64,000 bases of DNA from a virus. Shown here piece by piece: positions 5,449 to 47,827 of this stretch. How positions within the stretch are numbered: position 1 is the first letter of the stretch; every line of letters begins with the position of its first letter. Location of the stretch: positions 15,088 through 79,087 of IMG/VR virus record IMGVR_UViG_3300044734_000006; one strand, given 5' to 3'. The translations under genes were made by a program, and so were the position numbers. The notes beneath the pieces were generated by a model. The model ran no database searches. It saw only the letters and a list, made by a program, of their open reading frames with translations, and was not told the DNA's origin.

Positions 5449-6339
5449 GTGATCGAAGTTAGCAAGACGTGGTCACTTGTGCCATGCAAGTTTCGTCCTG
5501 GAGTTTCAAGGGAGCGAGGAGTCCACGCCCAGGAGGCGCGGGCTGGCAAGTATCGCGGCGCCCATGTCTGGGCTTGGATGGATGCCAACGGCGGTGTGCC
5601 GCCTCCTAAGGGCATGTGCGTGTGCCATCACTGCGATGTTCCGCCCTGCATAGAAGCTGAGCACCTGTTCCTCGGTACATACGCTGACAACACCCATGAT
5701 GCGCAGGCCAAGGGGCGGATGCCTATCCGCGCACCGCGCCACGTAGCGCGTCGTGCTGGAACACAAACCTATGTTCGGAGTATCGCGATGCTACGATCGC
5801 CCACCGACCCGCCACTCGACCACCAAGAGAGCGCCGATGAGCCCGTTCGACGTGATCCAGCCGATCTCGCAGACGTGAGCCCTCCAACCGACCCGCACCA
5901 GCCCAGAGCGCGTAGTGTCCACTGGCCTGACGAACTTCACGTCTATGTTGCGGCCGTGGCTCGGGAGGGTGAGGTCCAGGGGTACACGCGGGCCGAGTTC
6001 AACATCTCCACCGTGGCGCGTGAGGCCCTGCATCGTCTCCGTGATCGCCTAGAGGAACCCGCCACAGCAGCCGCTGCCATCATCCGAAGCTGGCGAAAGG
6101 ATGACGATGGTACGGCGCCGCCCCCGTCCAAGGCTCGCAGTGTGTGGTGGGACGACGAGCAGCACGGGTGGCTCGAGGACGTCGTCCGCGAAGGGAAGCG
6201 TGCCGGCAGCAAGGCGTTCAACATCAGCGTGGTGGTCCGCGAGGCGCTGTACCGGTTCCGTGCCCGCTACCCGGAGCCTGCCAAGGCCGCCGAGGCGATC
6301 ATCCGGGGCTGGGAGCGAGAGGCGAAGCGCGAAGGCTAG
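5449..6339 (+). CDS. HNH endonuclease fused to two tandem ribbon-helix-helix-like repeats
   Basis: HNH: VCHHCDVPPCIEAEHLFLGTYADNTHD. Repeats: RSVHWPDELH..NISTVAREAL and RSVWWDDEQH..NISVVVREAL. GTG lies 7 nt after TACGAT. Confidence 0.75.
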   Translation: MIEVSKTWSLVPCKFRPGVSRERGVHAQEARAGKYRGAHVWAWMDANGGVPPPKGMCVCHHCDVPPCIEAEHLFLGTYADNTHDAQAKGRMPIRAPRHVARRAGTQTYVRSIAMLRSPTDPPLDHQESADEPVRRDPADLADVSPPTDPHQPRARSVHWPDELHVYVAAVAREGEVQGYTRAEFNISTVAREALHRLRDRLEEPATAAAAIIRSWRKDDDGTAPPPSKARSVWWDDEQHGWLEDVVREGKRAGSKAFNISVVVREALYRFRARYPEPAKAAEAIIRGWEREAKREG

Positions 6340-9390: not shown

Positions 9391-9833
9391 GCCGACCGCT
9401 TCGTGGGACGGAGTTCGACAGTTGCACCCTCGGCGCGCAGGGCGTTGACGATGGCTACCGCGTCGCCTGCGTAGATGTCTTCGCGCACCACAACGGGGGC
9501 GGAATCGACCAACTGTAGGGCGCCTCGGAGTTCCATTCCGGGGATCGCCCAGCGGACCTCCTTGATCACGTTGATCTTGCGCGGTCCGACCTGGGTGAGC
9601 ACAACGTCGACACGCTGCTTGCCCGCTGGCTCCACGGTCACCGTGGGCTCGCCCTCCACGTACATGAGCGGGTCGTTCCGGTAGTTCTCGGCGTCGATCG
9701 CAGCCATCTCTTCCGGGTCGGTTTTGCCTCCGTAGTCGGACGGGTTCGCTGTGTACGTCCAGCGGAAGGTGACGGTGGCGACGAGTTCGACCGCTCCGTC
9801 CTCTGGCGTGTGGCTGGGATGCTCGGTCATCAC
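9387..9833 (-). CDS. Ribosomal protein bL12 (L7/L12) C-terminal-domain fusion protein
   Basis: From aa 75: VDVVLTQVGPRKINVIKEVR..GMELRGALQLVDSAPVVVRE..LRAEGATVELR; the N-terminal 74 aa are unrelated to the bL12 NTD. Confidence 0.9.
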   Translation of the reverse strand: MMTEHPSHTPEDGAVELVATVTFRWTYTANPSDYGGKTDPEEMAAIDAENYRNDPLMYVEGEPTVTVEPAGKQRVDVVLTQVGPRKINVIKEVRWAIPGMELRGALQLVDSAPVVVREDIYAGDAVAIVNALRAEGATVELRPTKRSA

Positions 9834-13426: not shown

Positions 13427-13627
13427 ATGAGCACCACCACCAAGACCGCCACACCCCGGCCGCGCATCTTCAACTGCCCCGGATCGGGCCAGCGGTGGAC
13501 CGACGAGTACAACCACGACCTCGCCGCACGAGGCGTCATCACCACGACGGAGGCTATCTGCCACCACTGCGGCGACCACCAGTCGGTCAAGCGCGATGGC
13601 ACCTTCTACCGGCATCGCACTCCCTGA
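13427..13627 (+). CDS. Small Zn-finger protein
   Basis: SD AGGAG; CPGSG...CHHC...H. Confidence 0.7.
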   Translation: MSTTTKTATPRPRIFNCPGSGQRWTDEYNHDLAARGVITTTEAICHHCGDHQSVKRDGTFYRHRTP

Positions 13628-13636
13628 CCCTACCCC

Positions 13637-13696
13637 TCCCGTCGCGGGAAGCCTCCCGCCTGAAGGAGAGCCGGACAGCTACCGGCCGAAACGGGA
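13637..13696 (+). ncRNA. Hammerhead ribozyme, type III, with a 1-nt core insertion
   Basis: Stem III UCCCGU/ACGGGA; GUC cleavage triplet (cut after 13643); stem I GCGGGA/UCCCGC; core CUGAAGGA; stem II G(A)GCCGG/CCGGCC; then GAAA; loop-loop AGC/GCU complementarity. Confidence 0.75.
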
Positions 13697-13703
13697 ACAC
13701 GAA

Positions 13704-13868
13704 ATGGACACCGAGATCACCCGTCGCTGCCTCGCCTGCGGAGCCAGCCACACCCGTCTCGGCCTCTGCCCCGGCTGCGAGCGCAAGGCCGAGGAGTACG
13801 CCGTAGGCAGTATCGCCCCGCGCATCCTCGCTGGAATGAGGCGCGAGCGCACGGAGAAGCGAGGATGA
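13704..13868 (+). CDS. Small C4 Zn-finger protein
   Basis: CLAC...CPGC; SD GGGA lies in hammerhead stem III. Confidence 0.65.
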   Translation: MDTEITRRCLACGASHTRLGLCPGCERKAEEYAVGSIAPRILAGMRRERTEKRG

Positions 13869-13987
13869 TGATCATGATTCTGCTGAGCCTCGTGTTGCTG
13901 TCGATGCTGACGGGGCAGCCGTGGTTCCTGCTGGGGCTAGGACTGCTGTATCTAGTGGTGGCACTGCGGATAGTGGGCGCGAAATGA
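13865..13987 (+). CDS. 40-aa membrane peptide
   Basis: MMIMILLSLVLLSMLTGQPWFLLGLGLLYLVVALRIVGAK; ATGA overlaps at both ends. Confidence 0.6.
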   Translation: MMIMILLSLVLLSMLTGQPWFLLGLGLLYLVVALRIVGAK

Positions 13988-14064
13988 GCACCAAGATCAC
14001 GCTGCTGGTGAGCGCCACCGTCCTCGGGTTTTCCGCAGAGGGACGGCGCTGGCGGCGCCGGTAA
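13984..14064 (+). CDS. 26-aa leader ORF running through the twister
   Basis: MSTKITLLVSATVLGFSAEGRRWRRR; ATGA-coupled; its TAA is the predicted twister cleavage site. Confidence 0.45.
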   Translation: MSTKITLLVSATVLGFSAEGRRWRRR

Positions 14065-14104
14065 TGCGCAAGTTCCGGTCCCAAGCCCGGGCGCAAAGGA
14101 GGAT
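14020..14104 (+). ncRNA. Twister ribozyme, type P5
   Basis: GCA-GAGGG; P1 CGGCGC/GCGCCG; U^AA (14062/14063); P2 UGC(G)/(C)GCA; T2 GC; P4/L4 CCGGUCCCAAGCCCGG, matching the O. sativa twister P4/L4 as recalled; P5 GUCCUC/GAGGAU. Confidence 0.8.
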
Positions 14105-14110
14105 CCACCG

Positions 14111-14374
14111 ATGACCGACATCGCCAGGAACGACGCCGTATGGGTGCGACGCACCGAGCCACAACCGTGCTCCTACTGGTTGACCATCGGCGAGCGTCAG
14201 TGGGCCGTCCTGCCCGAGATCGGCGGACATGGCTGGGAGGTGTGTGTCTACGAGCACGACGGCGTGGAGTTCGTAAATGACGCAGCGACGGTCGCCGAGG
14301 GTAAGCGCATCGCTGAACGGGATGCGACTCGGGCGGCAAGAGTGGACGCTGCGCGGATGAGCACAACCCGATGA
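14111..14374 (+). CDS. Hypothetical protein
   Basis: SD AAGGAGG overlaps twister P5. Confidence 0.7.
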   Translation: MTDIARNDAVWVRRTEPQPCSYWLTIGERQWAVLPEIGGHGWEVCVYEHDGVEFVNDAATVAEGKRIAERDATRAARVDAARMSTTR

Positions 14375-14414
14375 CCTTCCCAAGTCTCGGGGAAGCCACA
14401 AGGAGGAACGACCG

Positions 14415-14972
14415 ATGACCGACATCACGGCGACCCGCGGGCTGCCGAAACTCCACCCGCAGATGTACTCCTACCCGGTAGACCACTACCGGATGCTCGC
14501 TGCCCAGCCCGACCGCCTTGACCTCAACCCGCCCTACCAGCGTGGCTCGGTGTGGGGTGTGGAGCGCAAGCGCAACCTCATCAAGTCGTTGCTCATGGGC
14601 CTGCCGGTTGGCGCGGTGTTCCTCAACAGTCGACACATCATGCAGCCCGACAGGGTGGTGGACGGCAAGCAGCGCATCGAGGCCATCCTCGACTTCCTTG
14701 GCGATCGGCTCGCGGTGCCCGCCGTATGGTTCTCCGAGGACGATCTGACTGAGGCGACAGCAGGGCAGTGGGGCAGCGGGAACCTTACCACGGACATGGT
14801 GTCGTACTCCGATCTGACCCTTCCCGTGCAGCGTCGGTTCAACGATTCCACCGTCGCCACATACCAGACCAAGCTCCGCACCGAGGCCGAGGAGCGCGAA
14901 CTGTTCCTGCTCATCAACTACGGCGGGGTGGCGCAGGGCGATATGGACGCCGATGCGGGGGACGGGCGATGA
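14415..14972 (+). CDS. Stand-alone DUF262 (GmrS/ParB-fold) protein
   Basis: PPYQRGSVW, LIKSLLMGLPVG, VVDGKQR, ELFLLIN. Confidence 0.9.
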   Translation: MTDITATRGLPKLHPQMYSYPVDHYRMLAAQPDRLDLNPPYQRGSVWGVERKRNLIKSLLMGLPVGAVFLNSRHIMQPDRVVDGKQRIEAILDFLGDRLAVPAVWFSEDDLTEATAGQWGSGNLTTDMVSYSDLTLPVQRRFNDSTVATYQTKLRTEAEERELFLLINYGGVAQGDMDADAGDGR

Positions 14973-15228
14973 GCACCGACTTCGACGTTGACGCCGAAAT
15001 GGACCGCTCACGTGATGAGAGCAGATGCCTGGACCCGCGCCTTGACGAAGCGTTGGAGCGTATCGGCACACTGGAGAGGCTTGTCAGACGCATGGCGCGT
15101 TCTCTAGCGGGCGACGATGGTGCGGACATCGAGGAGGACGTCCGCATGTCGACAGCCTGCTCGTGCGATCTCGCTGAGTGGGGCAGCCACATCCACGACT
15201 GCCGGTTCGCCCCAGAGGATCGACGCCG

Positions 15229-45684: not shown

Positions 45685-46173
45685 CTACGTCTGCCTACTC
45701 CGTCGTCGAGCCTTGGCGCGGCAGATGCGGCACTGCCGGGCGCCTCGTGGGTCCACGTAGGTGGTCGCCTCGTTGAAGGGATGGCCATGGACGCACTGGG
45801 TCCTCTGGGAGTTCCAAGGTCGCTCCGGCGCCCGACGGGCGTTTTCCACCGCGGAGCACACGTCGAGGTGCTCTGGTCGGCAGCAGAGGGTGGTCCTGCA
45901 GAGGTGGTCCACGGTCATTCCTTCGGGGATCTGGCCGCGGAACAGTTCGTAGGCCAGACGGTGGATGTACATCCTTTTTCCGCCGTCGGTGATCACGCCG
46001 TAGACGTTCCGCCTTCCCTTCCTCACGTCCACGCTTCCGGTCCAACCCCAGCAGTCGTCTCCGATCACCAAGCTGATCACGAACCGTTCTATGAGTGGAC
46101 GCCTTTGGCCAGCATCAACGCGGCGCGGACTTATGGCTGGTAACACCGTGGACGACAAGGCTATCTCCCACAC
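45685..46173 (-). CDS. HNH homing endonuclease (start uncertain)
   Basis: CWGWTG, IHRLAYELFRGQIPEGMTVDHLC..CCRPEHL..EN, CVHGH..RQCRIC. Confidence 0.88.
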   Translation of the reverse strand: MWEIALSSTVLPAISPRRVDAGQRRPLIERFVISLVIGDDCWGWTGSVDVRKGRRNVYGVITDGGKRMYIHRLAYELFRGQIPEGMTVDHLCRTTLCCRPEHLDVCSAVENARRAPERPWNSQRTQCVHGHPFNEATTYVDPRGARQCRICRAKARRRSRQT

Positions 46174-47827
46174 TCACGTGAAGGCCGGTGGTGGCAAGTA
46201 TGACCACTCCCACGCAATCACGGGCACGAAGGCACACGGTCACGCCGTAGACGCGAAGGACAACGGCTCCACGACCGAACTCCTGCCCACCGTGGCGGCG
46301 ATGAGCGAGACCTCGCCCGGGGTGATGGCGCTGCGGTTCCCCCAGCAGGCCAAGCTCTCCGAAGGCGCGCCGATTGACTACATGTGCACGGGGGAATGGA
46401 CGTTCCCGGCGCTGAACGGCGGACGGCCGATCTCGGTGACACGCGACGACCTCGCCGACGTGAAGCGGCTGTGGGATGAGAACGCTTACGGCCAGCGCCT
46501 ACCGATCATCGATGAGACCCACGACAAGGACCGAGCCGTGGGCTGGATGAAGTCGCTGGACTGGCACCCGACCGATCCTGACCGTCTCGTGGCAGTCCCG
46601 GAGTGGAACGAAGGCACGAACAGGCTGGTCGCGGACGGCAGTTACGGCTACACGTCCCCCGTCCTGCTACTGAACTGGCGCGACCCGGTGTCCGGCACGG
46701 TGTACCCCGTCGTCCCCGGCGGGCTCGGACTGGATCCGAACGACCCCGAGGGCGACACCAGCGGACTAGCGCTGACGAACCACCCGAAGATCAAGAAGCT
46801 GTCCGCCAAGTTCGCAGCCTCCGAGAGCGGTGACACGCAGGCTGCACTGATCGCCTTTGGCGAGGCAGGCACGGTGTTCAGCGGCGTTGCGGCAGACACC
46901 GCCCGCGCACTGCTGGCCGAAGGTGATGGCGCGCCGATCGACTTCGCTTCGGCCGACGCCTCCGCGGACATGACCGATCTGCCGCCGTGCAGTTGGGCGC
47001 CGCCCTATGCCGAGTACAACCGCTGTCCGGGATACACGCGGGTGCTCGCAGATGGTGACGGCGACGCTCCCGGCGACATGCCCGGATGCTGCCGACTGGC
47101 GGCGCAGTGCAATGGCTACTCCCCGGTCCCGACGGGGACTGTTCCACCGTATCAGCGCTCCTACTACAGCGAGGGACACAGCATGGCCGACAACCCGGCC
47201 CAGCCGGCCGGAGTGCCGGCCGCCAATCCGTCTCCGGTACCCAACGCGCCGCAGACCGCCCCGCCCGCGGCCCCGCAGCCGCCTCCTGCACCACCGCCCC
47301 CTGCTCCGACACAGTCCGCCCAGCACTCCGCGGACATGGGGGAGATGCAGCGCATGCTCGCCGCAGAGACCCACCAGCGCGAGACGATGCAGACCGAGGT
47401 CGCACGGCTCGGCGAGGAGCTGAGGCGCCGCGATGAGGACGACAAGATCCGCGGCGTCGTGGTCCGGCTGTCCGAGCTCGCGAAGCGCTTTCCCCCAGCG
47501 GTGCTCGACAGCCTCGCCGGAGCCGCAAAGAACGGTGTTCGCGACCGCACCCGCCTGCTCAGGCTGAGCGAGCATCCGGTGGGGATCGAGGCGCTCGAGG
47601 CCATCCCCCAGGTGAAGGGTGGTGCGGTGTCGCTGAGCGAGATCGGCACTGGCGCAGAGGCCGACCCCGAGACCTCCTACTCGCGGCTGCGGAAGTTCGC
47701 CGAGGAGTTGCGGACGGCTGACCCGAGGCTCACCCGCGAGCAGGCGATGCTCAAGGCGAGCGAGGACCACCCTGACCTCGTCGCTGCGTACCGCGCCGAG
47801 AAGTATGTGCCCGGCGCGGCTGGCTGA
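46133..47827 (+). CDS. Capsid maturation protease plus scaffold (Mu I/Z-like)
   Basis: ETH..AVGW, YGYTSP, LALTNHP; Pro-rich linker and coiled coil; internal SD plus ATG at 47183. Confidence 0.85.
   Translation: MAGNTVDDKAISHTHVKAGGGKYDHSHAITGTKAHGHAVDAKDNGSTTELLPTVAAMSETSPGVMALRFPQQAKLSEGAPIDYMCTGEWTFPALNGGRPISVTRDDLADVKRLWDENAYGQRLPIIDETHDKDRAVGWMKSLDWHPTDPDRLVAVPEWNEGTNRLVADGSYGYTSPVLLLNWRDPVSGTVYPVVPGGLGLDPNDPEGDTSGLALTNHPKIKKLSAKFAASESGDTQAALIAFGEAGTVFSGVAADTARALLAEGDGAPIDFASADASADMTDLPPCSWAPPYAEYNRCPGYTRVLADGDGDAPGDMPGCCRLAAQCNGYSPVPTGTVPPYQRSYYSEGHSMADNPAQPAGVPAANPSPVPNAPQTAPPAAPQPPPAPPPPAPTQSAQHSADMGEMQRMLAAETHQRETMQTEVARLGEELRRRDEDDKIRGVVVRLSELAKRFPPAVLDSLAGAAKNGVRDRTRLLRLSEHPVGIEALEAIPQVKGGAVSLSEIGTGAEADPETSYSRLRKFAEELRTADPRLTREQAMLKASEDHPDLVAAYRAEKYVPGAAG

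Follow-up and report, generated by a model that had tools for sequence, protein, structure and literature searches.

The stretch of DNA analysed here (the window; 64,000 nt, positions 15,088 to 79,087 of IMG/VR record IMGVR_UViG_3300044734_000006) is taken from a 79-kb viral contig with an estimated completeness of 72%. The window has a GC content of 66%, and among its products are a Mu-type portal and a major capsid protein. Near-identical DNA was seen in soil metagenome runs only, with no RNA run among them, and the source is an uncultured, high-GC phage from soil. A DNA search of phage records with the window returned no match, and no cultured relative was found for the large protein encoded at 46091-47827.

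The locus of interest is a run of small genes (Table 1), probably an operon of the early class, in which a self-cleaving ribozyme of the twister family lies between two coding regions. The zinc-ribbon gene has a homologue, P0003, of 53 aa and 80% identity. The hydrophobic ORF that follows it has a Shine-Dalgarno pairing of -8 to -9 kcal/mol, and no homologue of it was found by tblastn of phage records or in the complete records of two related contigs, L016 and L017. These relatives are viral contigs that were found by way of the protein encoded at 14415-14972, which is 96% identical in L016 and 75% identical in L017; no relatives of the upstream and downstream genes were detected in viral contigs or metagenome contigs. 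The 14415-14972 protein itself consists of 185 aa and carries a GmrSD_N domain (DUF262, a ParB-like nuclease) without the C-terminal nuclease domain.

Table 1. Features of the ribozyme locus, with positions counted from the first nucleotide of the window.
Feature	Position	Strand	Remarks
Hammerhead-like intergenic element	13638..13703	+	Kept in L016 and L017; borders the swapped cassette on the left; runs up to the ATG of the following gene
54-codon zinc-ribbon gene, first in the cassette	13704..13868	+	GC3 0.83; weak Pfam DZR_2 match
40-codon hydrophobic (membrane-like) ORF	13865..13987	+	ATGA overlaps at both ends; GC3 0.80; codon score 0.57 bits per codon
26-codon ORF	13984..14064	+	Codons 1-17 lie ahead of the twister; codons 18-26 and the stop belong to it
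Type-P5 twister ribozyme	14034..14090	+	Rfam match, 59 bits
UAA: predicted cleavage (U14062^A14063) and stop of the 26-codon ORF	14062..14064	+	Placed on the consensus UAA 3' of P1
Shine-Dalgarno of the downstream gene	14096..14103	+	6 nt past the ribozyme; anti-SD pairing -12.1 kcal/mol
87-codon gene, function unassigned; cassette missing from relatives	14111..14374	+	No Pfam or PHROG match
Orphan 3' domain (P4 loop and 3' strand) of a second twister, with ribosome-binding site	14378..14414	+	From comparison with L016
185-codon GmrSD_N (DUF262)-like gene	14415..14972	+	Pfam PF03235, E 6.6e-15

A twister in the interval 13984-14104 had been proposed in the initial annotation of this DNA, and the Rfam search bears this out. 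The match to the Twister-P5 model (RF02684) at 14034-14090 is full-length, covering model positions 1-58 of 58, and its score of 59 bits lies above the gathering score of 37.6 (E 1e-9). Searching the whole contig gave the identical result, and the twister was the sole Rfam ribozyme match in the window, even at E<=1. The helices P1, P2 and P4 are present in the P5-permuted order together with both pseudoknots, T1 and T2. P1 is a loop-closed hairpin of seven pairs (14044-50 with 14054-60) seen both in folding and in the alignment, P2 has three pairs (14035-37 with 14065-67, GCA/UGC) followed by the GC of the second pseudoknot, and P4 has four (14075-78 with 14087-90); T1 joins GGG at 14040-42 to CCC at 14080-82, and T2 joins GC at 14068-69 to GC at 14085-86. 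The core bases and the UAA junction of the family are kept, as are all columns, invariant or conserved to 90% or more, of the 44-sequence alignment described below. Twisters cut the U-A step adjoining P1 (PMC5408937), and the junction UAA at 14062-14064 is placed by the Rfam alignment on the consensus UAA that follows P1; the scissile bond is therefore predicted to lie between U14062 and A14063. Judged by these features, the element is an ordinary type-P5 twister and probably active.

One structural detail had been taken as a departure from the family. The initial annotation read P2 as one base short of canonical and suggested a variant twister on this ground. The reading of a 3-bp P2 is right, and the Rfam consensus does show four pairs, but this is no essential difference: three pairs followed directly by the T2 dinucleotide are found in 38 of the 44 aligned sequences, and because this is the majority form the idea of a variant is wrong. 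Infernal aligns the twisters of L016 and L017 with a deletion at the fourth P2 pair.

The 26-codon ORF begins with an ATG that shares its ATGA with the TGA of the 40-codon ORF, which in turn shares an ATGA with the stop of the zinc-ribbon ORF. From there the frame enters the ribozyme by 31 nt, running through the 3' strand of P2 (14035-37), the T1 strand (14040-42) and the entire P1 hairpin, before it stops at the scissile triplet, its TAA at 14062-14064 being the U^AA at which cleavage is predicted. The RRWRRR at the end of its product consists of the CGG, CGC and TGG codons of the P1 hairpin in translation. Much of this had been noticed earlier, and the 26-aa ORF at 13984-14064, its ATGA start overlap, its RRWRRR end and the identity of its UAA with the scissile triplet were confirmed in the sequence. 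The path through the ribozyme had been given as P5, P2 and P1; it holds for the 3' strand of P2, for T1 and for P1, but no P5 helix is evident at this copy, because the flanks are taken by coding sequence and the ribosome-binding site. Two further points made at the time are supported: a ribosome on the ORF would unfold the ribozyme, as it must melt P2, T1 and P1, and by the geometry cleavage at U14062^A14063 would leave the upstream frame without a stop.

The first 17 codons of the ORF, which precede the ribozyme, have the composition of a coding sequence. GC3 is 16/17, and a codon log-odds model trained on 11 long, high-GC3 ORFs from the window gives them 12.1 bits. This score falls in the upper part of the in-frame distribution, and only 0.2% of off-frame windows of 17 codons attain it; for the other two phases the values are -24 and -7. 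This codon pattern argues for coding, either present or recent, and together with the two chained ATGA overlaps it suggests that the ORF is translated, so that the overlap with the ribozyme would have real physical consequences open to selection. The Shine-Dalgarno sequence of the ORF is weak, at -5.6 kcal/mol versus -11 to -12 kcal/mol for the two downstream genes, and its hydrophobic run extends over only about 14 residues. Homologues were sought by tblastn of phage records, in a large protein collection at near and longer lengths, with a degenerate peptide pattern in viral contigs and in the complete records of L016 and L017, and none turned up. Short soil contigs over 13978-14013 were considered as diverged copies of the ORF and rejected; they belong to a bacterial ABC-2 permease gene, and their 30/36 match to the ORF is due to chance. 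The meeting of the frame with the UAA has a likelihood of about 1 in 3, since one of the three phases that enter the twister stops there. The other two, one of which enters the frame of the next gene and one of which ends at 14112-14114, stay open for at least 50 nt.

A pattern search of viral contigs, with Rfam as the second step, yielded 44 further Twister-P5 copies, distributed over 14 loci on 13 other viral contigs. Copies in one locus all lie on the same strand, with up to eight within approximately 5 kb. An alignment of 44 sequences was assembled from the twisters of the window, L016 and L017 and 41 of the 44 further copies. In this alignment P2, T1, T2 and P4 are 97.9% paired, compared to 20-49% with slid partners, T2 is 100% paired, and changes on both sides are found at 7 of 12 pairs; P2, P4 and both pseudoknots show covariation or compensatory changes across the 44 copies.

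The position of the ribozyme relative to its neighbouring genes follows a family rule, in which a stop codon lies at the 5' edge of the ribozyme and a ribosome-binding site about 18 nt after its 3' end. In 31 of the 44 further copies, an upstream ORF of 40 aa or more terminates between -6 and +5 nt relative to the first base of the ribozyme, against 5.4% of random positions in the same loci (binomial p ~2e-29), and the stop at the edge is often a UAG whose AG forms the first two bases of the ribozyme. Beyond the 3' end, 41 of the 44 copies have a start codon with a Shine-Dalgarno sequence before it, at a median distance of 18 nt. The rule supports a message-processing model and shows that ribosomes are normally excluded from the catalytic fold. 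The window keeps the downstream half of this layout, with the Shine-Dalgarno at 14096-14103 and an ATG at 14111, 20 nt past the ribozyme, but has no stop at the 5' edge, its last well-supported stop being 46 nt upstream. A long frame ending at the UAA can be found in seven of the 44 further copies; these are not credible, because a higher-GC3 ORF ends at the 5' edge or codon periodicity is absent, and no credible gene ends at the UAA in any of the 44. A 117-codon frame that reaches the UAA of the twister at 9648-9718 of contig L012 was considered as a second example of the overlap and rejected, as the region upstream of it is without codon periodicity.

Closer relatives of the locus show a similar pattern. 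Both L016 and L017 carry the same twister as the window, with compensatory changes in P1 in L017 and at two P4 pairs in L016, and a lineage-specific twister pattern search returned these two contigs only. The gene upstream of the ribozyme is in each case unrelated to that of the window and is closed out of phase with the UAA, by a TAG lying 3 nt ahead of the ribozyme in L016 and by a TGA 6 nt ahead of it in L017. Among Logan contigs of four further soil runs there are at least two more unrelated upstream sequences that end in TAG just before 14032. Homology between the window and its relatives stops at 13706 and resumes at 14032, the edge of the ribozyme, with different genes in between; because homology breaks at both borders, 13707-14031 is best described as a swapped cassette between two conserved RNA elements. 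The locus is a clean natural case in which the borders of ribozymes match those of a swapped gene cassette. The window's cassette alone, compared with those of all relatives, has no stop codon at its right end.

Conservation of the frame in homologues had been named beforehand as the comparison by which a regulatory role of the overlap could be refuted. Among the two relatives and the fragmentary soil contigs that have this twister, none of which carries the window's upstream cassette, the frame is absent, and the interpretation of the ORF as a selected coupled leader fails in this comparison. Overall, the sequence-level observation stands, and part of its initial interpretation finds support.

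The element at the left border of the cassette (66 nt) is 91-96% identical in L016 and 86-88% identical in L017, with differing genes on both sides, and soil contigs span 13600-13706 and diverge beyond this interval. Its parts are a GUC, a 6-bp hairpin, a CUGA-type core, a second hairpin and a GAAA that closes a 4-bp stem. The core reads CUGAAGGA in the window and CUGAACGA in L016, each with one extra base, and is canonical in L017 (CUGAAGA) and in some of the soil contigs. The Rfam hammerhead models did not report the element in the relatives, nor in the window with E raised to <=10 on a stretch of 221 nt.

A further difference lies downstream of the cleavage site. The 87-codon gene is missing from L016, and the contigs of the relatives join 14067/14070 directly to 14378. 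The sequence at 14378-14414, the leftover P4 loop, 3' strand and ribosome-binding site of the resident twister, is nearly identical to the 3' part of the L016 twister (L016 2660-2720), and from this comparison it seems that the gene entered together with a twister 3' domain of its own, between the T2 dinucleotide and P4. The conserved core of the ribozyme would thus mark a point of insertion or recombination. The L017 twister (2647-2703) has CCCCAG in the P4 loop where 43 of the 44 aligned copies have an A (CCCAAG), and judging from this substitution it may be a slowed or disabled copy.

Two possible RNA-level interactions were considered and rejected. For pairing of the leader with the ribozyme the predicted ddG is -10.2 kcal/mol, the second strongest of 45, but this value is matched by 14% of dinucleotide shuffles and by 18.5% of natural 50-nt windows before the same ribozyme; on these controls the leader was not accepted as an anti-ribozyme strand. 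Masking of the next gene's ribosome-binding site by the ribozyme was also rejected, the site being unpaired in MFE and centroid folds both before and after cleavage. The pairing of this Shine-Dalgarno (-12.1 kcal/mol) is the strongest in the neighbourhood, and in the downstream cleavage piece the first 33 nt are predicted to form a hairpin that extends P4 and leaves the ribosome-binding site free.

The explanation we favour, and which we regard as reasonably likely, is that the twister is an intercistronic processing ribozyme and that its overlap with the mini-ORF is an incidental product of the cassette junction. The ribozyme would cut the polycistronic RNA co-transcriptionally between U14062 and A14063, separating the message of the upstream micro-genes, whose 3' end would consist of the P1 hairpin and a 2',3'-cyclic phosphate, from a downstream message that would start with a 5'-OH and a P4-based hairpin some 30 nt ahead of the strong ribosome-binding site. 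Cassette 13707-14031 would have taken the place of the gene found in relatives between the two conserved RNA elements, and the 26-codon ORF would be its last coding sequence, real or recently real. The frame runs into the ribozyme as far as the UAA because the cassette has no stop at the ribozyme's 5' edge, and the Arg-rich tail would be simply the P1 hairpin in translation. A ribosome on the ORF would transiently unfold the ribozyme, and after the cut ribosomes on the ORF would reach a stop-less 3' end and need rescue. Such unfolding and non-stop stalling are probably side products of a lineage-specific junction rather than a conserved regulatory device. As the relatives and the 44 further copies stop before the ribozyme, the overlap looks like a one-off of cassette shuffling; in these comparisons the arrangement is peculiar to this contig, and the overlap is probably accidental. 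Nothing suggests that the collision between translation and ribozyme has been selected.

A different account builds on the initial annotation and takes the mini-ORF for a selected coupled leader. Ribosomes would keep the twister unfolded, so that cleavage reports translation, and cleavage would produce a non-stop upstream mRNA that tmRNA and decay remove, thereby setting the ratio of upstream to downstream expression. The exact geometry of frame, UAA and ribozyme speaks for this account, as do the coding-like codons and the ATGA coupling to a well-supported upstream ORF, and a ribosome's footprint must cover P2 and T1, which by their pairing are needed for the fold (PMC5408937). Taken as one model, it nevertheless appears quite improbable: neither L016 and L017 nor the soil contigs that share the twister have the frame, none of the 44 further copies has a credible gene ending at the UAA, the usual stop at the 5' edge prevents ribosomes from entering P1 across the family, and P1 itself is dispensable for cleavage (PMC5408937). 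The pairing of leader and ribozyme, equalled by 14-18% of shuffled or natural controls, and the weak Shine-Dalgarno of the ORF count against it as well. The contrary view, that the 26-codon frame is untranslated and that 13988-14033 is a spacer or the dead stub of a former gene, we consider unlikely. It would fit the failure of every search to find a homologue, the weak Shine-Dalgarno and a hydrophobic stretch of about 14 residues, which is short for a membrane helix; high-GC DNA also keeps frames open by chance, and the phase match with the UAA is a 1 in 3 event. This view must contend with the GC3 of 16/17 and a codon score that so few off-frame windows attain (0.2%), and with the ATGA overlaps, which are the usual coupling device in this operon. 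An untranslated gap of 46 nt before the twister would also be unusual, because a gene abuts the ribozyme in 31 of the 44 copies.

Two other readings accept translation and assign it a purpose. The ORF could encode a functional tail-anchored mini-protein, whose Arg tail and stop are dual-coded by the ribozyme and which would be made mostly before cleavage. A hydrophobic segment followed by a positive tail fits small membrane proteins that follow the positive-inside pattern, the neighbouring ORF is also small and membrane-like, and the 26-codon ORF has the codon signature described above. Any CGG/CGC-rich P1 hairpin would give such a tail when translated, however, and no homologue was found, the twister part is non-coding in the relatives, and after cleavage all product would be rescued and probably degraded; we attach only a very slight chance to this reading. 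A slight chance is given to a timer that would translate once and then destroy, in which the lead ribosome, coupled over two ATGA junctions, holds the twister open and stops at the intact UAA, after which the RNA is cut. If this were true, later ribosomes on the mini-ORF would become non-stop complexes after the cut through the stop codon, and their rescue, with the decay that accompanies it, would give the upstream micro-gene RNA a shorter lifetime; the downstream RNA would retain its hairpin with the 5'-OH.

An intercistronic processing ribozyme, the reading preferred here, has precedents. Clustered hammerheads on either side of single, changing prophage genes were described in 2011, with a role in processing proposed (Perreault et al., PMC3088659), and a similar processing of phage transcripts has been suggested for twisters, in a publication that describes the biological role of bacterial and phage self-cleaving ribozymes as unsettled (PMC6765202). 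A processing ribozyme between phage genes is already known, and the new twist, the overlap, is not conserved. As in other ribozyme-punctuated phage operons, the ribozyme of the window occupies a short gap between small genes on one strand, its neighbouring genes differ from relative to relative and a ribosome-binding site follows close behind; the window differs in that its upstream frame is not closed before the ribozyme. It differs also in number, with one Rfam-recognised ribozyme on this 79-kb contig compared to arrays of five to eight elsewhere.

In the early genes of phage T7, RNase III cuts structured intercistronic RNA, giving single-gene messages with hairpin-protected ends. [quoted passage not shown] The upstream product also invites comparison with the substrates of tmRNA, which through trans-translation rescues ribosomes on non-stop mRNA. 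The predicted 5' fragment would resemble these in ending ...CGG-U without an in-frame stop; it would differ in being truncated by a ribozyme in cis, rather than by nuclease damage or premature termination, and in carrying a cyclic phosphate and a hairpin at its 3' end. Because the mini-ORF breaks the stop-edge rule, the locus makes a convenient natural test case for a collision between translation and a twister.

Several features of the further copies deserve mention in their own right. Contigs L003, L008, L009, L010, L011 and L012 contain same-strand arrays of five to eight Twister-P5 ribozymes within 4-7 kb, with one per gene gap. Four copies on the - strand of L010 (380-441, 1137-1194, 4057-4113 and 4447-4498) form a sub-type in which P2 is GGU/ACC (GGU/CCC in one copy) instead of GCA/UGC and the junction reads UAAACC; P2 is fully compensated in this sub-type, and its scores lie above the Rfam threshold. 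In the L008 copy at 6279-6335 a G replaces the U 5' of the scissile bond, and the T1 pair is compensated (GAGUG with GUCAC). Finally, the first twister of the L012 array, at 9648-9718, is preceded by a GC-rich stretch of about 450 nt (approximately 250-700 of the reverse complement) that reaches up to 80% GC, has no codon periodicity and contains many CCCGG/GGGCC repeats. This stretch may be a structured leader or a promoter region.
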